Part shown: positions 4,545-30,398 of the stretch, one piece after another
Layout: every line of letters begins with the position of its first letter
Numbering within the stretch: position 1 is the first letter of the stretch
IMG/VR virus record: IMGVR_UViG_3300037524_002016
Span: 1-64,000 of that record
Reading direction: 5' to 3' (one strand)
Length of the DNA: 64,000 nt
Origin: a virus
The notes under the pieces: model-generated
Database searches by the model: none
Told to the model about the DNA's origin: nothing
What the model saw: the letters and a program-made list of their open reading frames with translations, nothing else
Made by a program: the position numbers and the translations under genes

Positions 4545-4781
4545 ATGTACGCTGAAGAAGTCAAAGTACTGACCCGCATGGAAGCCCGTGGCCCCCTCAT
4601 GAGGGCACTCTGGACTTCAATCAACATCGACATCCTTGACGTTGTCAACGAAAAGCAGGTCACCCTTCTCGGGATCACCGCCCGACCCCACCGCGCCACC
4701 CAAGACGACCTCGAAGCTGTCACTCGGGTCGCCCATGTGACCGACGTTTTTTCCAACCTTTCCAACCTCACGCGAGACTGA
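4545..4781 (+). CDS. hypothetical protein
   Basis: 78-aa ORF in the operon. Confidence 0.55.
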   Translation: MYAEEVKVLTRMEARGPLMRALWTSINIDILDVVNEKQVTLLGITARPHRATQDDLEAVTRVAHVTDVFSNLSNLTRD

Positions 4782-4784
4782 CCA

Positions 4785-5903
4785 ATGACTGACATTATCC
4801 GCGAAAAAGACCGCATCGCTGGACCCCTCACCGAAGAGGAAAAGGTCCAACTGAAGGCCCACGCTGACCTCTGGATTCAGCGCATCCTCCGTACTGATCC
4901 CATAGAACCTGACAAGATCAAACACTCGATAAAGGACCTTTATCGAGTGTCAGACTTAGCTGAACCCTATGTGGCGGTCGTGACCAGTCCCGTCATGGCG
5001 GCCTTCGCCGGCGGGGCCATTGCGGCGGTAATCGAAGACGGCACGGTGACCGATGAAGAAGTCCCCGCGACTGTCGATCGGATCGTCGGTCGATTCACCG
5101 TGGTGGTCCCCGTTCCGGGGACCACCGTTGAACAGGCCTACGCCGCGCTCTGCAAGGAGATCGGTGGCTCCCAAGGCCTCAAGCTGGCTTCCCAGATCGA
5201 CACCTACATGGCCGGCGGTAACATGTGGGCGCAGTATGACTGCCTCCTGACCGCCATGCGAGACGTCCTGGGGCTGGACCTGCCCGAGCATGTGCCCTAC
5301 AAGGCCTGGGAGGAATGCGCGATCCACGGGTCCTTCCGGTGGCTCCACGAAAAGTTCTGCCTAGTGTCTGACTTCCCTGAAGCCATTCGCCAGGATGAGC
5401 AGTTCAGGCCGCACTGCGATGATGGTCCGAGTCATCGGTGGCGGGACGGCTGGGAGCTTTTTTATGTTCACGGGGTGAGAGTACCGCCCAAAGTGGTATT
5501 ATCACCCGAGACATTAACTGCCCAGGAAATCTCCGACGAGGTCAACGCCGAGGTCCGCCGAGTCATGCTGAGCCGGTTCGGCCTGGCCCGCTACGTCAAG
5601 GAGGCTGGCTTCGACGTGGTCTGCGAGTACCCAGAAGACCACCCGTTAAAGGGCCTCCGCACGGCCCAGGTGATCCGCAAGGAGCAGGAAGACGACGAGC
5701 CCATCGTCGTGCTCGACATGCTCAACAGCACACCGGAGCCGGACGGCACCACCAAACGCTACACCATCCGGGTGGATCCCAATGCCTACGATGGGTTGGC
5801 GTCCGAGGACTGCTTGGCGGCGATGGCCTCGACGTACCGGCTGCCGGACGGGAGCCTGGTGTTTGAGAAGCCGGAGGATTATCAGCCGGCGTTCGAGTCG
5901 TGA
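4785..5903 (+). CDS. DUF6745-like domain protein
   Basis: PHCDDGPSHRWRDGW..YVHGVRVP, NAEVRR and NSTPEPDGT..Y.IRV motifs. Confidence 0.75.
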   Translation: MTDIIREKDRIAGPLTEEEKVQLKAHADLWIQRILRTDPIEPDKIKHSIKDLYRVSDLAEPYVAVVTSPVMAAFAGGAIAAVIEDGTVTDEEVPATVDRIVGRFTVVVPVPGTTVEQAYAALCKEIGGSQGLKLASQIDTYMAGGNMWAQYDCLLTAMRDVLGLDLPEHVPYKAWEECAIHGSFRWLHEKFCLVSDFPEAIRQDEQFRPHCDDGPSHRWRDGWELFYVHGVRVPPKVVLSPETLTAQEISDEVNAEVRRVMLSRFGLARYVKEAGFDVVCEYPEDHPLKGLRTAQVIRKEQEDDEPIVVLDMLNSTPEPDGTTKRYTIRVDPNAYDGLASEDCLAAMASTYRLPDGSLVFEKPEDYQPAFES

Positions 5904-9575: not shown

Positions 9576-10013
9576 ATGAAAATCAAAGTACTCGACCCAC
9601 GTCTGCATCGCTATCCGATCGAGCCCTCCACCCCTGACGCTGCCGGCATCGACCTCCGGGCCTGCATCGACACCGTGTTGCCGGTGCCCGAAGCCGGCAC
9701 GGTGAAGGTGCCCACCGGTCTGGCGGTGGCCATTCCCAAGGGCTGGGTGGGGCTGCTGTTCGGCCGCAGCGGCCTGGGTGTCAACCATCAGGTGCGCCCG
9801 GCCAATTGCGTTGGGGTCATCGATGCCGATTACCGCGGCGAAATCATCATCGGCCTCGAGAACAACGGCCTGTCCTACCTGCTCCAGCCAATGGAGCGTA
9901 TCGCTCAACTCGTCATCGTTCAGCACTGGCCGATGACCGAAATAGAACTTGTCAACGAACTGCCTTTGTCCGAGCGCGGTGCGCTGGGTCTGGGCTCCAC
10001 TGGGAGACTGTAA
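9576..10013 (+). CDS. dut: trimeric dUTPase
   Basis: Motifs AGIDL, GRSGL, GVIDADYRGEI, RIAQL, RGALGLGSTG. Confidence 0.97.
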   Translation: MKIKVLDPRLHRYPIEPSTPDAAGIDLRACIDTVLPVPEAGTVKVPTGLAVAIPKGWVGLLFGRSGLGVNHQVRPANCVGVIDADYRGEIIIGLENNGLSYLLQPMERIAQLVIVQHWPMTEIELVNELPLSERGALGLGSTGRL

Positions 10014-10408
10014 TGTCGAAAGGAAAATTAGAGGAAGCGCGGATGGCCGCTGAAAAGGCAGCCATTGAATCTGCGTTAGAAACGTGCGGCGGCGTCATCA
10101 GCCATGCCGCGAAAATGCTCGGCATCAGCCGGATGACGTTGTATCGGAAGGCCAGCCAGTTTGGCATTCCCATTGCCCGCGGAGATACCAACACTGCTCC
10201 AGCGGTGTTTTCGTTGCCGACCCAAGAGGAGGTCGCCAAGTTCGCGGAAGAGCAGGGCATCCCTCTCGATGCGGCCGAACATCAACTGCGGATGCGTGCC
10301 ATCAAGGGCTGCCTGCAGTCGGCCAGAAGCTACACCCAGGCCAAGGCAGCACTGCTGAACCTCTTTGGCATGGTTGACGTGGAAGAGGAGGAGGAGGAGG
10401 CCGCATGA
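10013..10408 (+). CDS. Fis-family (HTH_8) DNA-binding protein
   Basis: AEKAAIESALETCGGVISHAAKMLGISRMTLYRK. Confidence 0.85.
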   Translation: MSKGKLEEARMAAEKAAIESALETCGGVISHAAKMLGISRMTLYRKASQFGIPIARGDTNTAPAVFSLPTQEEVAKFAEEQGIPLDAAEHQLRMRAIKGCLQSARSYTQAKAALLNLFGMVDVEEEEEEAA

Positions 10409-13920: not shown

Positions 13921-14877
13921 ATGGCGGTGTACAAACGGGGCAATGTGTATTGGGTCCGGATCTGGCGCGATGGTCGACAGATTCGGAAATCGGCAGGGAA
14001 GGGCGCATCCAAGGCAGACGCCAAAGCTCTGGAGGCCGAGATGTTTCGTGAATTCATGAAGCATTTACCGGGCCTTCGGAAGCACACGCTGCGGGATGCC
14101 TATGATCGCTGGCTCGCCACCGATTGCAGGGCCCTGAAGTCGGCCAAGAAAACGGGCAACCATGCGTTGCACGCTCTGGAAGGCTTCTGGGACGAACCCT
14201 TAACCCAAGCGCCAAGGGTTGCAGACGCCATCAAGGCCCGGCTGCTGGGTCTCGGCCTCAGCAATGCCACGGTCAACCGCCGCGTTGCGGTGGTGATCCG
14301 GCTCTGCAATTTGGCGTACAAGTGGGGCTGGCTCGACCAACCCATTGCCAGCAGGATTACGAAGCTGCCCGAGCACAACGAGCGGCACGTGTATCTGGAA
14401 CCGGAACAGGTGGAGGCCCTGGCCTCGGCTTGTTACCTTCCAGAAGCCGGCGACCTGATTCGGGTCGCTGCGTTCACAGGCCTTCGGCGTGGCGAGTTGC
14501 TGGCCCTGTCAGCAGGTATGCTGCAGGGTGATGTGATCCTGATGCCGGCACATAAATCACGCCGGCGGGCAGTGCCGATACCCGAACACATCTGCTCGAT
14601 CGTTCAGAGGATGCCGCTGCCTGTCACCGACGGGCAGCTGCGCCTCAACTGGGATCACGCCCGTAAAATCACTGGACTGTTGCAATATCGGTTCCATGAT
14701 TTACGTCACAGTTACGCGAGTTGGCTGGTCCAATCCGGGGCCTCGCTTCGAGCGGTGCAGGAACTGTTGGGGCATACCACTCCGACCGTCACCCAGCGCT
14801 ATGCGCACCTGGAGGTCGGCAATCTTCGGACCGTGGTGACCCAGATGGTGACCCTTCGCGGCAAGCCATCCGCTTGA
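13921..14877 (+). CDS. tyrosine recombinase / phage integrase
   Basis: TGLRRGE (R), FHDLRHSYASWL (HxxR), LLGHT (H), TQRYAH (Y); N-terminal arm-binding-like segment. Confidence 0.95.
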   Translation: MAVYKRGNVYWVRIWRDGRQIRKSAGKGASKADAKALEAEMFREFMKHLPGLRKHTLRDAYDRWLATDCRALKSAKKTGNHALHALEGFWDEPLTQAPRVADAIKARLLGLGLSNATVNRRVAVVIRLCNLAYKWGWLDQPIASRITKLPEHNERHVYLEPEQVEALASACYLPEAGDLIRVAAFTGLRRGELLALSAGMLQGDVILMPAHKSRRRAVPIPEHICSIVQRMPLPVTDGQLRLNWDHARKITGLLQYRFHDLRHSYASWLVQSGASLRAVQELLGHTTPTVTQRYAHLEVGNLRTVVTQMVTLRGKPSA

Positions 14878-21321: not shown

Positions 21322-21350
21322 TTGACACCACATTGTGGGTATGTTAGAAT
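21322..21350 (+). promoter_or_regulatory. sigma70-like promoter with an operator-like palindrome in the spacer
   Basis: TTGACA-N17-TAGAAT; CCAC-ATT-GTGGGTA. Confidence 0.75.
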
Positions 21351-22414: not shown

Positions 22415-25186
22415 ATGGAACCTTTTTCCTTTCACGTGCTCCTCGACCTGAGGGGCCTGGTCCTTCGCGCCTACCATTCCGGGGTCGATCCCGACGCCTA
22501 CCCGGTGGAAGGGCGTCCCGTCAACACCGCGGCCTACGGCCTCGATGTCTTCATTGACCGGTACCTGAAGCCGGTCCTTACCTACGCCCAGCCACTCGAC
22601 ATCATTGCCGTTCACGACGCCGGCAACGAGTACCGGCGCGCCCTTTATCCGGACTACAAGCTCAAGCGCCGCGAGAAACTCGCCGGCGAGTTCGAGAAAC
22701 AGCAGGCCGACCTGTTGATGCGGCTGGTTCGGGACCTGCTGGCCCAGTTGGGCTGCCTTCAGGTCTACTGTGAAAAGACCGAAGCCGACGATGTCGTGGC
22801 CTATCTGGTCGAGAAGTTACACGGCAACAAAGCCATCTACACGGTTGACGAAGACCTCGTACAACTGGCCACCCCTGACGGGGTGACCGTTTTTCGTGGA
22901 GACGACTGCTTCACCGATGAAATCCACGGCATCCCAGCCGAGCTTCTGGTCCTCCGCAAATCCATCATTGGTGATTCTTCCGATGGCTATGGCGGTGTCG
23001 AGGGGGTCGGTCCCAAGGGCTTCGACAGCCTGCGGGACGACTTCGGTATCGATGGTCTCTACGAACTGGACAAGATCGTCCGGACCCAAGACTGGAATGA
23101 CCTTGCTGCCTGTTGCACAGGCAGCAAGGTAATACAAAAGCTCTATGATCAGCGCCAGCAGTGGCACCTCTGCTACCAACTGGCCCGGCTGCATCCCGAG
23201 ATCTGCTACCAGATCAAGGACCGGAGCCTGAGGACATTGAAATGGCTCAAGCGACTCCCGAGTCGGGACAATGTTGCCAGTTTGCTTGAGCAGACGGGCA
23301 ACACCCACCACCTGGAGGCCCTGGAGAAGTTCTTGCCGCGGTTCACCCTGGTTACCCAGGCCAACCTGATGCAGGTGCTCCCCGAGATCAAGGGCTACCT
23401 CGCGGAGAACAGCTTTGCCGCGTTCGACTACGAAACCTATGACCCCGTCCAGTGGGAGCCCTTCCAGCGGGCCAACAAGCGGGGCCAGTACCTCGACATT
23501 CTGAGTCACATGCCGACCGGTGCATCCTTTGCCGTGGGTCCCAACAACGCCCGGGCCTACTACTTCTCGACCGAGCACAAGGACACGGCCAACGTGCCAG
23601 CTGGGGTCATTGGCGGGATGATCCAGTACATCGAACTGGAGCGGAAGATTCCCCTGGCCGCCCACAACGTCGCCTTCGAAGACGCCGTCACCGGCAACAC
23701 CTTCCACTATCGATTGCAGTCCCGCTGGGACACGATGCTGATTCAGCGGCACCTGGATGAAGAGGGTTTCTCCGGTCTCAAGCACCTGTCGAAGCACTAC
23801 TTGGCCTACGACCAGACGACGTATGCGGAGTGTTTAGCTCAGGCTGGGCACACAGCAGCCATGGCTGCTGTGTGCGAAGACTCCGAGGGCGACTTGCCGC
23901 CCACGGCCGCCGTCCACATGGCCGATCTGACCGGCGAGGAAGTCCTCCACTACGCCTGTGACGACGCCCTGGTGACGGCACACCTGCTCCCGCTCATGGT
24001 CCGGCTGGGCCAGATCGAGGGCTGGTGGAACCATGTCCGGGAAACGGAGTTCACTGCGGCAGCGCCCCTGGTCGACGTCTACCTGGATGGTGTGCCGGTG
24101 GACTATGAGCGGCTGGACTACCTCGCCAGCGAGGACCGGAAGACCATCGCCGCCGGCCAGGTCAGGGTCCGTGAACTCCTGCAGGCTCACTGCACGAGCG
24201 CATCTGACGAGGCCGTGGACCGGTTGATGGAGGAACTGGAACCCTTCATCCGGGCCAAGGCCAAGGCCGACGGCAAGACCGCCACCGAGGCCACGGAGAA
24301 GGTCAAAGCCGAGCGCGCGTACTTCGAGATCGAAGGCAGTTACCGGCCGTGGATCGAGATCACGGAACGGATTCCCTTCAATCCGACGGCGACCCAACTG
24401 AACAAGGTGGGCGAAGCCCTGGGCGTGGTGACGCCGCTGGAGAAACTGACCAAGGGCACGCTGACGGCCTACATCAGTCAGGCCATGGCCGAGCATCGAC
24501 CGGATCCGGATTCCGATCTGGGGCGGTTCCTCGATCTGTTGCGGCATGCCACCGGCAAGGCCTTCAAGGAATTGAATTCGCCGGAGCGTCTGGCTCTGAT
24601 CAACTTCTGCGAGGGCATCCTGGGCCAGAACATTAAGACCACCTGGACCGGCAGCGAGTTGAACTCAGGCAGCGGCAAGCAGATGCAAGCCTTCCTCTAC
24701 GTGATGCTGGATTTGCCGATTCGCCTCCGTTCGAAAGTCGACAAGGGCTCGACGCGGGAGCAACTCGGCTTCGAGGGCGCGCCCTCGACCAACGAGAAGG
24801 CCATCAAGGTGGCGATCGCCGAGGACACCAAAGGCAAGGGTTTGCCGGACACCTGGATGCCCTGGGCCGAACTGCAGAAAGCCATCGAGGTTTCGGCGAA
24901 CGGCGACTGGAAGGCCGAGGTCCTGCTGACCTGGTTGGCTGTCGGCAAGGCCCAGACCCGGGAAGAACTGTACTGGACGCCCTACCCGCTGTGGAAGCAC
25001 CCGAAGGACGGACGCATCCACCCCTTCTTCCGGCCGTCCGGCACGGAAACACGGCGGCCGACCGGGTCGTCGCCGAACCTGTTCCAGGTTTCGAAGAAGG
25101 ACGGCGGGTATGTCCGTTCAATGTTCGTGCCGTTTGAACCGGAGCGGGCACGGGTGGTGCCAACTAATGTGGAGAAAGCAGCATGA
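22415..25186 (+). CDS. polA: family A DNA polymerase, N-terminal chain (5'-3' exonuclease, 3'-5' exonuclease, thumb, start of palm)
   Basis: YR..LYPDYK..R, EADDV, DEDL.QL, GDSSD...GV.GVGPK; FDYET, HNVAFE, YACDDA; DGRIHP...T.TRR.....PNL.Q...VRSMFVP. Confidence 0.9.
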   Translation: MEPFSFHVLLDLRGLVLRAYHSGVDPDAYPVEGRPVNTAAYGLDVFIDRYLKPVLTYAQPLDIIAVHDAGNEYRRALYPDYKLKRREKLAGEFEKQQADLLMRLVRDLLAQLGCLQVYCEKTEADDVVAYLVEKLHGNKAIYTVDEDLVQLATPDGVTVFRGDDCFTDEIHGIPAELLVLRKSIIGDSSDGYGGVEGVGPKGFDSLRDDFGIDGLYELDKIVRTQDWNDLAACCTGSKVIQKLYDQRQQWHLCYQLARLHPEICYQIKDRSLRTLKWLKRLPSRDNVASLLEQTGNTHHLEALEKFLPRFTLVTQANLMQVLPEIKGYLAENSFAAFDYETYDPVQWEPFQRANKRGQYLDILSHMPTGASFAVGPNNARAYYFSTEHKDTANVPAGVIGGMIQYIELERKIPLAAHNVAFEDAVTGNTFHYRLQSRWDTMLIQRHLDEEGFSGLKHLSKHYLAYDQTTYAECLAQAGHTAAMAAVCEDSEGDLPPTAAVHMADLTGEEVLHYACDDALVTAHLLPLMVRLGQIEGWWNHVRETEFTAAAPLVDVYLDGVPVDYERLDYLASEDRKTIAAGQVRVRELLQAHCTSASDEAVDRLMEELEPFIRAKAKADGKTATEATEKVKAERAYFEIEGSYRPWIEITERIPFNPTATQLNKVGEALGVVTPLEKLTKGTLTAYISQAMAEHRPDPDSDLGRFLDLLRHATGKAFKELNSPERLALINFCEGILGQNIKTTWTGSELNSGSGKQMQAFLYVMLDLPIRLRSKVDKGSTREQLGFEGAPSTNEKAIKVAIAEDTKGKGLPDTWMPWAELQKAIEVSANGDWKAEVLLTWLAVGKAQTREELYWTPYPLWKHPKDGRIHPFFRPSGTETRRPTGSSPNLFQVSKKDGGYVRSMFVPFEPERARVVPTNVEKAA

Positions 25187-25431
25187 AGTTTTGTAAGGAC
25201 TGTGTGCACGTTGAAGTACTGGGAAAAGCAACGTCTTGTTACTGGTGCAATCGGGCCCTCACTTTTTATCAGGACCCGGTCACCGGGGATAGAATAGAGA
25301 CAGGCAGCCGACAGTGCATGGACGAACGCTCGAACGAAGGCCTCTACCATTGCGGACCCGAGGGCCAGTACTTCATCAAGCGTCGGCCCTGGTGGGCCAA
25401 GTGGGTGGACCTGTGGTTCGGAGGTCACTGA
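25183..25431 (+). CDS. small Cys-rich protein between the polymerase halves
   Basis: CKDC...C...C...CGPEG; ATGA and TGATG coupling on the two sides. Confidence 0.75.
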   Translation: MKFCKDCVHVEVLGKATSCYWCNRALTFYQDPVTGDRIETGSRQCMDERSNEGLYHCGPEGQYFIKRRPWWAKWVDLWFGGH

Positions 25432-26327
25432 TGGCACACGTCATCATTTCGGCCGACTTCAACCAGCAGGAACTGCGTTTGTTGGCCTCGGAATCCGAGG
25501 ACGCCACCCTGATGGACGCCTACCTCGGGGAAACGCAGAAGGACCTCCACACTATCACGGCCTGTGCCATTGCCCCCGGCGAGATCTTGCGCAGCGGGGG
25601 CCGGTTCATTCTTCGTGACGTCGAATTGGACTCGGCCACGGGCCGAGTCCGATATGACTTCTATGAACAGGCCCGGAAACAGAAGGACGACCTCGGCCAG
25701 TTCCTGGACAACATCCGCGGCAAGGGCGCCAAGCCGGCCAACTTCCTGATCGTGTTCGGGGGCGGGGCCGGGACCTTGGCAGCGAACCTGATGATCAAGC
25801 GGCAGATCGCCCAGGAATACGTCGAGGGCTGGCTGGACACCTATCCCGGGGTGCCGAAGTGGTGGGCCAAGGTCGACGAATTCGCTCGCCGCAACGGTTA
25901 TGTTCAGACCGTCTATGGAACCAGGAGACATTGCTGGCCGAATATCGTGTCGCAAGATAGCAACCAACGTTCAGCTATGGAGAGACAGTGTCGCAATTTT
26001 CTTATACAGGGAAGTGCATCAGAAATTCTCAAAATTGTCTTAGCTGGTACAGCTAAGACCCGGCTCTTCAAGGAGACCGGTGCCAAACTCATCGCCCCGG
26101 TCTACGACGAAATCACGGCTTCAGTGCCCGTCGAGGCCGTGGTCGAGTACTGCGGTCGGCTGTCGGCTTTGATGGCCATCACCCCACCTGGACACAAGGT
26201 CCCCATGGTCCCCGAGATCTCCATCGGCCGAGAGAACTGGGGCAACAAAGTTGAACTGGGCGCATTCCCATCAGCGGAGGCCATTGAGGCCGCGGTGCGG
26301 GGTGAGCCTATGGAGAATGCGGCTTGA
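25431..26327 (+). CDS. polA: family A DNA polymerase, C-terminal catalytic chain (motifs A, B, C)
   Basis: SADFNQQELR (A), DLH, R...AKPANF.IVFG (B), NFLIQGSA, PVYDEI (C); own GGAGG RBS. Confidence 0.92.
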   Translation: MAHVIISADFNQQELRLLASESEDATLMDAYLGETQKDLHTITACAIAPGEILRSGGRFILRDVELDSATGRVRYDFYEQARKQKDDLGQFLDNIRGKGAKPANFLIVFGGGAGTLAANLMIKRQIAQEYVEGWLDTYPGVPKWWAKVDEFARRNGYVQTVYGTRRHCWPNIVSQDSNQRSAMERQCRNFLIQGSASEILKIVLAGTAKTRLFKETGAKLIAPVYDEITASVPVEAVVEYCGRLSALMAITPPGHKVPMVPEISIGRENWGNKVELGAFPSAEAIEAAVRGEPMENAA

Positions 26328-26515
26328 ATAAGATTCAGACTTCCAAAACCGTCCTCAAGTGCTCGGACTGTGGCCGGGCCATTCCCGTTCGGCAGCCTCA
26401 TTACAAGAACATCGAGACGGGAGAAGTGACTCACCCGAACTGCGATCTCTATCGCAGCCAGCCCCTCTTTGAACCACGGAACTCCCATGCTCGAATCGCT
26501 CGTCATCGTCGTTGA
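26324..26515 (+). CDS. small zinc-finger-like protein
   Basis: CSDC...HPNC; GGAG RBS, TTGA overlap. Confidence 0.55.
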   Translation: MNKIQTSKTVLKCSDCGRAIPVRQPHYKNIETGEVTHPNCDLYRSQPLFEPRNSHARIARHRR

Positions 26516-27197
26516 CCTCGAAACCACCGGCGTCGACCCTAAGACCTGCGGCATCGTCCAGATCGGGGCCGTCACCTATCATCCCGAGCGCGAGCACTAT
26601 GCGGTCGCGCTTAACCAACTGGTAGACCCCGGTATGCCGATCCCGGCCGGGGCCTCGGCAGTTCACGGGATCACCGACGAGCACGTCCGGTATGCGCCGG
26701 CCCAGAAAACTGCGATCCGGCTCTTGGAAAATTCGATCTTCATGATCGCCAGGGTCGCGGAGCGGGTGCCGGTCATTGCCGGTTTCAACTGTGCCAGTTA
26801 TGACTTCAAGGTCTTGGAGGCCAACGGCATGGAACTGGTCCGGGAGCGGACTCTGGACGTCCGCTGGCTGACGGACCGCTACTACCCGCACAACGGCGGC
26901 ACCCTCAGTGCCACCTATCAGGCAGCTACCGGCAAGCCGCCGCTCGATGCCCACGATGCGGTGGCCGACTGCATCATGACCACCGAGATTCTGCACACCC
27001 ACCTGCAGGCTACCGGCAAGACTATCGACGCTCTCCTGGAGGAGTTCAAGACCCCGCAAGTCTTGGAGATTTGCGCGCTCAAGGCACATGCCGGGAAACC
27101 CTGGAACGAGGTCCCGAAACACTATGTCCGCTGGTGCCGGGACAACTTCACGAACCTCTCGCCGGACCTGGCACTGACGCTGAGGACCTATGCCTGA
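26487..27197 (+). CDS. DEDDh 3'-5' exonuclease (DnaQ/ExoX-like)
   Basis: DLETTG, VHGIT, GFN...YD, AHDAVADC; C-terminal GK.W.EVP..YVRW. Confidence 0.92.
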   Translation: MLESLVIVVDLETTGVDPKTCGIVQIGAVTYHPEREHYAVALNQLVDPGMPIPAGASAVHGITDEHVRYAPAQKTAIRLLENSIFMIARVAERVPVIAGFNCASYDFKVLEANGMELVRERTLDVRWLTDRYYPHNGGTLSATYQAATGKPPLDAHDAVADCIMTTEILHTHLQATGKTIDALLEEFKTPQVLEICALKAHAGKPWNEVPKHYVRWCRDNFTNLSPDLALTLRTYA

Positions 27198-27387
27198 GTG
27201 GCCGGAGTTCCGGCTACCTCCCATCAACTTGTGGGTGATGCCGCCCTGGCGTGGGCGGACACCCGAAAAGCGGTGCGTCAAGCAGTGCCGACTGAATCGG
27301 CGCACCCAAACCTGCGATGGCTGTGGACGTACCATGGCTGAGATTAAACAAGCGTACGAGAGAATAACATGTCCCAAGACCCGTTGA
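27190..27387 (+). CDS. DUF1289-like small Cys protein
   Basis: CVKQCRL.....CDGCGRT..EI. Confidence 0.65.
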   Translation: MPEWPEFRLPPINLWVMPPWRGRTPEKRCVKQCRLNRRTQTCDGCGRTMAEIKQAYERITCPKTR

Positions 27388-30300
27388 AAACTCCCTACCA
27401 ACAATTCATCCACCGGTCGAAGTATGCCCGCTGGCTGCCGGAGAAAGGCCGCCGCGAGACCTGGGAAGAAACCGTTTGGCGCTACGTCGACTACTGGTGG
27501 AACCGCGGGGTGATCACCCCATCTGAGCGGCTCGCCTTGTTCACGGCCATCTACAACCTGGAGGTGATGCCGTCGATGCGGGCGCTGATGACTGCTGGCG
27601 CAGCATTGGATCGTGATGTAACAGCAGGGTACAATTGTAGCTTCATAGCGGTAGGCGGTAGCGGCAAAGACATCACAATTGAACACCCCGACCTGGACCA
27701 ACCCTACATCTTGCATGTGGGGTCGCCGATCGACTTCGACGAGATCCTTTATGTGCTGATGTGCGGTACTGGGGTGGGATACTCCGTCGAACGTCAGTAC
27801 ATCAACCGTCTGCCGGTGGTCGGCGACTCGTTGAACCGCAGCATCTACGCGCCAACCGAGGAAAATTTCCCGGGCGTGCCGGCTGATGAACTGTCGGTTT
27901 TCCTGTCCGCAGAGAACCGGATTGTGGTGGCTGACAGCAAATGCGGGTGGGCTTCCGCGCTACGCATCCTGCTGGTTGAGCTTTATAACGGCAACTTCGA
28001 CGTCACCTGGGACGTCAGCCAAGTCAGGCCGGCCGGGGCCAGGCTGAAGACGTTCGGGGGCCGGGCTTCCGGACCGGAACCGCTGCTGCGGCTGTTCGAC
28101 TACTGCGTGCAGTTGTTCAGGGCCGCGGAGGGCCGAAGGCTGAATTCCATCGAGTGTCACGGCCTGGTCTGCAAGATTGCTGACATCGTGGTGGTGGGCG
28201 GTGTGCGCCGGTCGGCTTTGCTCTCGTTGAGCAACCTGTCGGACAACCGCATGCGGCATGCCAAGACCGGCAGCTGGTGGATCGAGAACCCGCACTTTTC
28301 TCTGGCCAACAACAGCGTGGCTTTCACGGAGAAGCCCACAGCCGGGGCCTTCATGGCGGAGTGGCTGTCGCTCTACGACAGCAAGAGCGGTGAGCGAGGC
28401 ATCTTCAACCGGCAGGCAGCCACCAAGTTGCAGCCGGCGAGAAGGGCGGCCTTAGGGTATAACGAGTGGGGTACAAATCCTTGCTCAGAAATTGTACTAA
28501 GGTCACGCCAAAAATGCAATCTCAGCGAGGTAGTGGTACGACCCAGTGACACCCAAGAGACCCTGTTCTACAAGATCGAAATCGCCGCGATCCTCGGCAC
28601 CCTGCAGGCCACGCTGACCGACTTCCGCTACCTCTCTCCGAAGTGGAAGGAGAACTGCGAAGAAGAACGCCTCCTCGGGGTCAGCTTGACCGGCATCATG
28701 GATCACCCGCTGCTGAGCACGGTCAGCGAAGAGTCCGGGCGCTTGCTCCGAGGACTCCGCGACCATGCGGTGACGATCAACCAACTGTGGGCCGACGCTC
28801 TGGAGATCAATCCTGCTACGGCCGTGACCTGCGTGAAGCCGTCCGGCACGGTTTCGCAACTGGTTGACGCCGCCAGCGGTATCCATCCTCGCTACGCGCC
28901 GCACTACATCCGGACCGTGCGGGCCGACAAGAAGGATCCCCTGGCCCAACTGATGCGGGACCAGGGCGTGCCCTGCGAGGACGACGTCATGCGGCCTGAC
29001 TCCACCTGGGTGTTCTCTTTCCCGGTGGAGGCCCCGGCCGGGTCGGTGTTCCGAGATGATCGCTCAGCTTTGGAGCAGTTGGAGTTGTGGAAGCACTATC
29101 AACTCAACTTCTGCGAGCACAAACCATCTTGCTTTTCGGCAAAGACACGTTTCATTACGGACCAAGGTTTGGTGTCGTTTGAGGAGGTATTGGCAGGCAG
29201 AGAAACAGCCGAAGTTAAAGTCCTCAACAAAGTCGGTGAATTCGTGCCGGCCACGGTAAATAGGTTTGGCAGGCAAGAAATATGGGAAATCACGTTAACT
29301 TCAGGTAAGAAGTCATTTACCTTGGAGACAACGGCCGATCACTTGTGGCCTGTTACTTACCACCATCAGAGGTGGGCAGGCTGGGATGAGAAGCTTTACC
29401 AGACTAAAAGTCTGCCGATAGGAAAGCAGTTTGTCTCGGTATATCAGAAAACCGACTACAACTCCTTTGCTTTAGAGGGGTTTCTACATGGTGTGGTTTT
29501 TGGTGACGGCACCGAATACAACAAACACCGCGCCAACTCACATTGCAGAGTAGACCTATGTGGAGACAAAGGCCCTGACTTAGTTCCGTTCTTTGAAAAG
29601 TTTGGGTTAAGTGCCACGACCAACAAAGCCGGTAACATGCAGAGCGTTTACAGGTTACCGAATCACTGGAAAACGTTGCCAGATATCTTGGAGGAATCCT
29701 CTGAATATTTGAGGGGCTTTATCATGGGCTGGTTCGCGACAGACGGGTATGTCGATAGAAAGGGCGCTGCCTTTTCTATTTCCAGTTCCAGGCGAGAATA
29801 CCTGGAGTGGTTACAGGCGGCTGCTCCAAAGGCTGGAATAGGTGTGTCTGTTAACCTTCAACAAGGTGTTTCAGGGGCCACCGCGTATGCAAACGTTAGG
29901 AACCCAGAAATAGACCGCACCTTTTACTGGGTGTGTTTCCTGAAAGAGTCATTATCCAAGGATTTCTTTGTAAGAGCAAAGCACAAAGACAGGTTTACAG
30001 TGACAGAGCAGTCTTCCAAGCGTTGGAAGATTAGTCAGGTACGGAACACAGGTAGGCTCGAGGAAGTTTTCTGTGTAACTGAACCGGTTGGCCATCACTT
30101 TGTGTTGGAAGGAAACATCCTCACACACAACTGCACGGTTTACGTGAAGGAACATGAATGGCCCGCAGTCGGCGCCTGGGTCTACGACAACTTCGACATC
30201 GTCAGCGGCATCAGCTTCTTGCCGCACTCCGACCACAGTTACCAGCAGGCGCCCTACCAGGAGGTCGACGAACTGACCTACAAGACAGCCCTGGCCGTGT

Positions 30301-30398
30301 TCCCCGAGATCGACTGGGATCAACTGCGTGAAGAGGACGACCAGACCACAGGGTCACAGGAGTATGCGTGCGTGGGCGGGGCCTGTGAACTCACGTAG
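27369..30398 (+). CDS. nrdJ: class II (adenosylcobalamin-dependent) ribonucleotide reductase containing an intein
   Basis: PSMRA, YNCS, GGRASGPEPL, VVVGGVRRSA, GTNPCSEI, CNLSEV, VKPSGTVSQL, C-terminal CVGGAC. Confidence 0.95.
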   Translation: MSQDPLKTPYQQFIHRSKYARWLPEKGRRETWEETVWRYVDYWWNRGVITPSERLALFTAIYNLEVMPSMRALMTAGAALDRDVTAGYNCSFIAVGGSGKDITIEHPDLDQPYILHVGSPIDFDEILYVLMCGTGVGYSVERQYINRLPVVGDSLNRSIYAPTEENFPGVPADELSVFLSAENRIVVADSKCGWASALRILLVELYNGNFDVTWDVSQVRPAGARLKTFGGRASGPEPLLRLFDYCVQLFRAAEGRRLNSIECHGLVCKIADIVVVGGVRRSALLSLSNLSDNRMRHAKTGSWWIENPHFSLANNSVAFTEKPTAGAFMAEWLSLYDSKSGERGIFNRQAATKLQPARRAALGYNEWGTNPCSEIVLRSRQKCNLSEVVVRPSDTQETLFYKIEIAAILGTLQATLTDFRYLSPKWKENCEEERLLGVSLTGIMDHPLLSTVSEESGRLLRGLRDHAVTINQLWADALEINPATAVTCVKPSGTVSQLVDAASGIHPRYAPHYIRTVRADKKDPLAQLMRDQGVPCEDDVMRPDSTWVFSFPVEAPAGSVFRDDRSALEQLELWKHYQLNFCEHKPSCFSAKTRFITDQGLVSFEEVLAGRETAEVKVLNKVGEFVPATVNRFGRQEIWEITLTSGKKSFTLETTADHLWPVTYHHQRWAGWDEKLYQTKSLPIGKQFVSVYQKTDYNSFALEGFLHGVVFGDGTEYNKHRANSHCRVDLCGDKGPDLVPFFEKFGLSATTNKAGNMQSVYRLPNHWKTLPDILEESSEYLRGFIMGWFATDGYVDRKGAAFSISSSRREYLEWLQAAAPKAGIGVSVNLQQGVSGATAYANVRNPEIDRTFYWVCFLKESLSKDFFVRAKHKDRFTVTEQSSKRWKISQVRNTGRLEEVFCVTEPVGHHFVLEGNILTHNCTVYVKEHEWPAVGAWVYDNFDIVSGISFLPHSDHSYQQAPYQEVDELTYKTALAVFPEIDWDQLREEDDQTTGSQEYACVGGACELT
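29130..30131 (+). mobile_element. intein (334 aa) with LAGLIDADG homing endonuclease
   Basis: EHKPS|CFSAKT...TADHLW...GNILTHN|CTVYV; FLHGVVFGDG and FIMGWFATDG; visibly lower GC. Confidence 0.95.

Follow-up and report, generated by a model that had tools for sequence, protein, structure and literature searches.

The family A DNA polymerase (PolA) of an uncultured phage is encoded by two separate genes, which are broken just before motif A and hold between them an unrelated gene for a cysteine-rich protein of 82 amino acids (aa). The phage is represented by a linear IMG/VR virus record of 82,529 bp, rated 98% complete (IMGVR_UViG_3300037524_002016), of which positions 1 to 64,000 form the window analyzed here. 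It is probable, in our assessment, that the two genes provide a working two-chain PolA, which would have arisen by insertion of a small-gene cassette into a permissive loop just before motif A. All three genes lie on the plus strand. The upstream piece (N-part, 22415..25186) encodes 923 aa from an ATG and comprises the 5'-3' exonuclease, the 3'-5' exonuclease, the thumb, and the first part of the palm up to a conserved Arg-x-x-Phe strand; the longest possible open reading frame (ORF) starts at TTG 22367, and ATG 22415 aligns with the N-termini of relatives. Directly after the conserved VRSMFVP, the N-part ends in a tail of 17 non-homologous residues (907-923, 25133..25183). The inserted gene (25183..25431), whose product has Cys at positions 4, 7, 19, 22, 45, and 57, belongs to a family of small phage proteins. 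The downstream piece (C-part, 25431..26327) encodes 298 aa that begin with MAHVIISADFNQQELR and include the motif A strand, the fingers with motif B, and motif C.

The three reading frames interlock at both junctions: the TGA of the N-part (25184-86) overlaps the ATG of the small gene (25183-85) in ATGA at 25183-86, and the TGA of the small gene (25429-31) overlaps the ATG of the C-part (25431-33) in TGATG at 25429-33. The final codons of the N-part tail hold the Shine-Dalgarno sequence (GGAG, 25171-74, plus strand, 8 nucleotides (nt) ahead of the ATG) and the start of the small gene, while the 3' end of the small gene contains the ribosome-binding site of the C-part (GGAGG, 25420..25424, plus strand, 6 nt ahead of the ATG). 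The word TGGAGAANGCNGCNTGA forms the last 17 nt of both the N-part (25170-25186) and the C-part, and these are its two exact matches in the 64 kb; at both places, it combines a Shine-Dalgarno sequence with a start overlapping a stop, which explains the similar Glu-x-Ala-Ala ends of the two proteins. A sequence-only reading of the window had described a two-gene PolA broken before motif A around an unrelated Cys-rich gene, and its coordinates, ORFs, and VRSMFVP end with a 17-aa tail were all verified; the ATGA and TGATG junctions and the GGAGG ahead of the C-part likewise read as it had claimed.

The two halves retain the domains and catalytic motifs of a family A polymerase. In Pfam searches, the N-part matches both 5'-3' exonuclease domains, more weakly a 3'-5' exonuclease, and positions 88-149 of the PolA profile; the C-part matches PolA with an E-value of 8e-44. 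A six-frame search of the genome with PF00476 covers profile positions 79-149 up to base 25138 and positions 152-380 from base 25437, which makes the two genes directly adjoining parts of a single polymerase. Their combined length (923 + 298 = 1221 aa) is the same as that of the unsplit polymerase gp42 of Pseudomonas phage Lana. Motifs A (Asp...Glu-Leu), B (Arg...Lys...Phe...Tyr-Gly), and C (Asp-Glu), by which family A is recognized, are all found in this order in the C-part and align to the solved Bacillus and Taq Pol I structures. What departs from the family is that thumb, palm, and fingers do not share a single polypeptide, as profile positions 149 and 152 are separated by a stop codon and 248 nt. 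In a 23-sequence alignment, both exonuclease domains of the N-part have invariant acidic residues, and the structure model of the N-part reaches a mean predicted local distance difference test (pLDDT) score of 86.5, with tail residues 910-923 below 50 and predicted to be disordered. The reading frames of both halves are free of frameshifts and internal stops. Judged by sequence, both halves thus look functional. Moreover, profile searches of the genome record (98% complete) found neither PolB nor DnaE, and the split PolA is the only DNA polymerase detected.

The nearest named phages carry the polymerase as a single gene: gp42 of Lana has 1221 aa, and the proteins of Vibrio phages SHOU24 and K450 have 1322 and 1326 aa, respectively. 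These polymerases have the same domain order and lie in a similar replication module, but differ in being encoded by one continuous gene; their identity amounts to 32-35% to the N-part (alignment A1) and 34-36% to the C-part (tblastn). The small ORFs that follow the polymerase in Lana and SHOU24 are unrelated, as judged by eye. The polymerase portion of the N-part, used as the query of a protein search, returned 56 matches including its own, and 50 of the 55 others are 1053-1292 aa long. In 43 relatives, the chain from the conserved Arg to motif A was found to be continuous by a regular expression. A survey of 167 loci with a match to the C-part, drawn from metagenome, IMG/VR, metagenome-assembled genome, and phage records, gave a similar picture: in 113, the frame stays open upstream of the match over more than 100 codons, 17 reach the contig edge, the alignments of 34 fall short of the start of the C-part, and three are flagged as split. 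The three are this phage and the loci L094 and L116, both of which are intron cases at another site. Sequence comparison thus marks the unsplit gene as the ancestral state. Scans of viral contigs with the C-part alone or with a narrow alignment (A2) produced no matches, while a broader alignment (A4) did. Pseudomonas phage YuA was considered as a further case of a split PolA and rejected, its gp21 being one gene.

The same break recurs in relatives. Protein P0001 (297 aa) is 94% identical to the C-part and has the same first residues, and protein P0002 (320 aa) is 66% identical and starts five residues ahead of the same strand; the cluster of the latter comprises eight sequence variants on 33 contigs, the longest of 78,204 bp. 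A third protein, P0003, is 44% identical to the C-part, starts mid-motif, and is closest to unsplit proteins; by its sequence, it is probably a contig-edge fragment. On the N-terminal side, P0042, whose contig measures 8.8 kb, is a 903-aa N-part that stops within two codons of the break in the window and also ends in Glu-x-Ala-Ala. In a quick maximum-likelihood tree, P0042 falls among the unsplit proteins P0029, P0033, and P0034 (Shimodaira-Hasegawa-like approximate likelihood ratio test (SH-aLRT) 100), with the branch of the window long and unplaced, and BLASTP likewise finds its nearest kin in these three proteins (41-44% identity, vs. 34% to the window). Since both tree and BLASTP place P0042 with unsplit proteins, its break suggests an independent event. 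Scans of viral and genome contigs for the contigs of P0002 and P0042 gave only distant relatives or none. In motif B, the window, P0001, and P0002 have a Phe (IVFGG) at a position occupied by Tyr (xYG) in most relatives, in Lana, SHOU24, and K450 as well as in the solved Pol I enzymes; this Phe is common to the split clade.

The site of the break tolerates length variation in intact enzymes. In the 43 unsplit relatives, 15-31 residues (median 18) separate the conserved Arg from the motif A Asp, and therefore the loop accepts insertions of up to about 15 residues. The insert is bounded by a 5-bp direct repeat, GGCAC, on the plus strand, with the left copy at 25147..25151 and the right copy 286 nt downstream at 25433..25437. 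By simple arithmetic, this offset equals the +1 frame offset between the polymerase ORFs, so that removing one GGCAC and the intervening DNA restores a single frame with an Arg-to-Asp distance of 18. In addition, the start of the N-part tail (Ala-Arg-Val-Val) resembles the start of the C-part (Ala-His-Val-Ile), P0042 retains Arg-Val ahead of its tail, and P0002 retains Asp-His-Val at its head. These resemblances hint at a short target duplication at insertion. GC content at third codon positions is 0.66 in the small gene vs. 0.73-0.81 in the polymerase pieces.

The inserted gene belongs to a widespread family. The 82-aa protein matches no Pfam or PHROG family, and a word-indexed protein search returned only itself and one weak match. 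Its 90% cluster holds P0014, a protein of likewise 82 aa that is 80% identical and retains all Cys; the small gene hence changes faster than the flanking C-part (80% vs. 94% identity), yet stays intact. An exhaustive HMMER search collected 64 representatives at E<=1e-3; the majority are proteins of 63-96 aa that match over their full length. An alignment of 49 sequences (A3) shows Cys4, Cys7, Cys22, Gly35, and Cys57 to be invariant, and the window protein has kept all five; the family consensus reads MKxCKDCxH...C.R...DPVTG...C..ER...CGPEG. The family profile matches free-standing genes of Aeromonas phage phiA014S (E 1e-15), where the member is the ORF directly after an exonuclease gene, and of Burkholderia phage BcepF1 (gene 049, E 1e-12). 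A profile search found no family member at the other PolA loci fetched for the survey, and the genome of the window has one copy. Matches in ESM Atlas and BFVD are small uncharacterized phage proteins, a tblastn search of phages with the family member P0103 gave no match, and longer family members have no extra Pfam domain. The AlphaFold model of the 82-aa protein is confident (pLDDT 90); Foldseek found nothing in the PDB at E<=0.001, and a wide fold search returned only a likeness (Z about 3) to iron-sulfur proteins of the high-potential (HiPIP) type, a lead for metal binding at most. The protein is probably metal-binding. By sequence, the insert is thus placed in a family of free-standing small phage proteins with no assigned function. 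A neighboring 63-aa ORF with a CxxC...C pattern, which overlaps the end of the C-part (TTGA; C-part end and ORF together at 26311-26515, plus strand), was considered as a paralogue of the 82-aa gene and rejected (hhalign probability 1.4%).

A single polypeptide of 1.2 thousand aa could still result if an unrecognized self-splicing RNA, ribosomal bypass, or other recoding removed the about 286 nt, an option that we regard as extremely unlikely. The exact restoration of the frame by deletion of 286 nt between the GGCAC repeats would fit it, as does the occurrence of group I introns in phage PolA genes (L094, L116); moreover, the authors describing the split polymerase of phage MEP401 raised an intron for their own case, in the portion of the article consulted (PMC10580990). 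The loci L094 and L116, which stem from distant AT-rich IMG/VR phages, served as positive controls. L094 has a complete group I intron (RF00028, 96 bits) exactly in the gap, which contains no ORF, and a narrow permissive scan detected the 5' portion of an intron (38 bits, E 8e-8) in the gap of L116, together with a LAGLIDADG ORF. The regions concerned are 4422-4902 of L094 and 4629-5585, 9919-10149, and 10910-11195 of L116, the latter having two further group I introns within 11 kb besides the PolA intron. Both genes resemble the PolA of the window in that the frame is broken near the start of the palm or fingers, with an ORF possible in the gap; they differ in the site, which lies about 25 residues further upstream inside the SSxNPNLQ motif (between SSxNP and NLQ), and in the intron match. 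Indeed, while both control introns were detected, no match to RF00028 or another intron was obtained at E<=10 over 24500-26000 of the window, and the sole match of a permissive scan was a flavivirus element at chance level. Folding of the 331-nt gap region is no more stable than that of shuffled sequences (z -0.39), a conserved-family coding gene fills 249 of the about 286 inserted bases and leaves no space for a ribozyme core, and every piece has a ribosome-binding site and start of its own. The bypass in T4 gene 60 spans 50 nt, which the 286 nt would far exceed.

Protein splicing finds as little support at the gap: Pfam detects no intein or Hint domain, the insert does not start with Cys or Ser, and there is no His-Asn end. 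At the break, the N-part has just 17 extra aa and the C-part 2, and the N-part tail, being this short and predicted to be disordered, is therefore no intein half. What a normal intein looks like in this genome, as opposed to the PolA break, is seen about 1 kb downstream of the polymerase, where a class II (B12-type) ribonucleotide reductase (RNR) gene (27369-30398, plus strand) contains an in-frame insert of about 340 aa with Cys as its first residue, His-Asn at its end followed by Cys, and a LAGLIDADG domain (Pfam, residues 779-825), i.e., a canonical intein with a homing endonuclease. The 82-aa protein itself matches no nuclease family in Pfam or PHROGs, and no nuclease is among its fold matches, although it may be a novel small nuclease. 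The observation of the sequence-only reading that no intein termini or intron-encoded endonuclease are visible withstood these searches, and the group I intron match that it had named as a refutation was not obtained. RNA data came from four wetland metatranscriptome runs, which consist of short contigs and whose libraries may contain DNA. Contigs placed on 24300-26400 cover only 25389-26347; one of 174 nt (25389-25562) is colinear across the junction between small gene and C-part, and no spliced joints were seen in the contigs of the four runs, a weak test given the short contigs and the uncovered 5' junction. A further contig (run X5, record 5) follows the genome to the last base of the polymerase stop and continues from 26328 with 41 AT-rich letters, which match nothing in the genome; this end may reflect sequence variation, a chimera, or processing.

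Inactivation of the polymerase by the insertion, with replication left to host enzymes or to a polymerase in the unsequenced remainder, appears very unlikely. The record is linear and 98% rather than 100% complete, and the presence of an integrase makes a prophage phase possible, which would leave room for such a loss. However, every catalytic motif is retained in the two halves, the reading frames are uninterrupted by frameshifts or stops, the genome searches yielded no further polymerase family, and the split form persists over 34% protein divergence, on 33 contigs of the P0002 cluster. That the motifs are retained and the polymerase lies in a complete replication module of phage type speaks against decay of the gene. 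In these respects, the expectations that decay has affected neither half (the acidic exonuclease residues and motifs A, B, and C being kept) and that the split point is maintained in relatives (the 94% variant P0001 and the 66% lineage P0002) were borne out. A different question is whether the enzyme consists of three chains, with the 82-aa protein as an obligatory subunit or assembly factor that clamps both pieces at the broken loop. We judge this to be rather unlikely, even though the overlap of the small gene with both halves at coupling junctions would suit equimolar synthesis, the gene is intact with all Cys in the 94% variant despite its faster change (80% vs. 94%), the protein has a confident predicted fold (pLDDT 90), and its weak fold likeness (Z about 3) extends to small accessory iron-sulfur subunits of glycyl-radical enzymes. 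Members of the family stand alone elsewhere, as in phiA014S and BcepF1 (gene 049), the other PolA loci fetched lack them, and the acidic ORF that MEP401 carries at this site is unrelated; for these reasons, the small gene is probably a passenger and not part of the enzyme. A weak test points the same way: the longest-contig sizes recorded for the 66% lineage recur in no cluster among the ten nearest of the family. The alternative posed by the sequence-only reading, passenger or third subunit, thus leans toward the passenger, with a subunit as the less likely option.

The preferred reading, a two-chain PolA opened by a small-gene cassette, would work as follows. A cassette of about 286 nt with a complete small gene would have cut the only DNA polymerase gene of the phage in two, at a surface loop that connects the conserved Arg-x-x-Phe strand to the strand bearing the motif A aspartate. 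The cassette would end the upstream piece with a stop codon, bring an ORF with its own ribosome-binding site, and equip the downstream piece with an ATG and a ribosome-binding site, such that one transcript could yield three translationally coupled proteins. The chains of 923 and 298 aa would then join non-covalently and rebuild the palm, while the 82-aa Cys-rich protein would most likely be a passenger, expressed along with the replication genes. Several points weigh against this reading. Binding of the two chains and activity of the enzyme rest on inference, the 5-bp GGCAC repeat could be chance, and the intactness of the small gene with all its Cys in the 94% variant fits a useful passenger and a subunit equally. 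Furthermore, a search among proteins of 507-1616 aa did not turn up the N-part that would pair with the C-part of the 66% lineage, and the RNA evidence consists of short contigs, possibly of DNA, without coverage of the 5' junction.

The replication module surrounding the polymerase comprises a primase, an SNF2-type helicase, a DnaQ-like exonuclease, RNR, a ThyX-type thymidylate synthase, a resolvase, and SbcCD. The exonuclease gene (26469-27197, plus strand; DnaQ/RNase T-type, PHROG "DNA polymerase exonuclease subunit") adjoins a polymerase already equipped with a 3'-5' exonuclease domain whose acidic residues are intact. A near-consensus sigma-70-like promoter (11/12, extended -10 TG) at 21322-21350 on the plus strand, upstream of the gene preceding the polymerase, may drive the whole block, and no terminator-like site was found on the plus strand between the polymerase halves. 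Elsewhere in the window, a tyrosine integrase gene (13921-14877, plus strand) makes a temperate lifestyle possible; the phage combines a siphovirus-like tape measure protein of 2869 aa with its Lana/SHOU24-like replication module.

If the preferred reading holds, the phage adds a well-documented case of an essential replicase that would operate as two chains, with splicing of neither RNA nor protein involved, from a gene that annotation pipelines would otherwise label as broken. Together with MEP401 and P0042, it suggests that natural PolA enzymes can be opened repeatedly at a single loop of the palm, which could be useful for the engineering of split polymerases. It also offers a first genomic handle on a widespread family of small Cys-rich phage proteins that has no Pfam or PHROG entry. 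A bolder proposition, which we consider quite unlikely, is that self-contained small gene cassettes land repeatedly in the pre-motif-A loop of family A polymerases of phages. Each cassette would have a ribosome-binding site, an ORF, and stop/start overlaps for re-initiation at the downstream half and would insert with a short target duplication, and three unrelated lineages would have been hit independently: the P0042 clade, the MEP401 type, and the clade of this phage. Such cassettes would represent a class of gene-splitting mobile elements with no nuclease or an unrecognized one, and the Cys-rich protein would be the agent of the element or a bridging subunit.

A split PolA with this layout has already been reported at this spot in marine phages, according to the consulted portion of the article: MEP401 and MEP402, which infect Methylophilales (OM43), have the DNA polymerase in ORF13 and ORF15 with a small unknown ORF14 between them, and the authors left intron vs. 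split open, naming an intron as a possibility (PMC10580990). In the MEP401 record (OP830906), the SPNLQN motif is followed by the conserved strand, a few residues past which the N-part ends; the C-part begins at the motif A strand. MEP401 and the window thus share a family A polymerase in two genes, a small ORF lying flush between them, and the same structural site of the break. In contrast to the window, MEP401 is a 43-kb podovirus of the Zobellviridae, its polymerase is very distant and has no 5'-3' exonuclease domain, and its ORF14 encodes an acidic protein of 77 aa without Cys that is unrelated to the Cys-rich family. No Rfam intron matches the MEP401 gap. With unrelated inserted ORFs and very distant polymerases, common descent of the split or of the insert is not indicated. 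A marine cyanophage lineage with a split polymerase has been published as well, in a report likewise available to us in part (10.1101/325100). What is new here is modest: three unrelated lineages share one break site, and the insert has been identified.

Fractured genes that combine split inteins with a free-standing endonuclease provide another precedent (Dassa et al., 2009, PMC2677866, as far as the excerpts consulted go). They resemble the window in having a replication gene in two pieces around an unrelated gene, but the window has no intein halves. A functional parallel may be the "genes in pieces" arrangement nrdA-a / mobE / nrdA-b of Aeromonas phage Aeh1, in which, according to the excerpts consulted, function is restored by non-covalent assembly (PMC3045599). 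In both cases, an essential replication-related enzyme is encoded by two separately translated genes, relatives are unsplit, and the pieces have acquired new tail sequences. Non-covalent assembly has been shown for Aeh1 and is presumed for the PolA of the window; the Aeh1 insert is a homing endonuclease, whereas that of the window has no detectable nuclease domain. Unlike in Aeh1, the tails in the window are very short (17 and 2 aa), and the first is predicted to be disordered. By this analogy, the phage most likely has a two-gene PolA that works like the Aeh1 NrdA in pieces, without a recognizable endonuclease.

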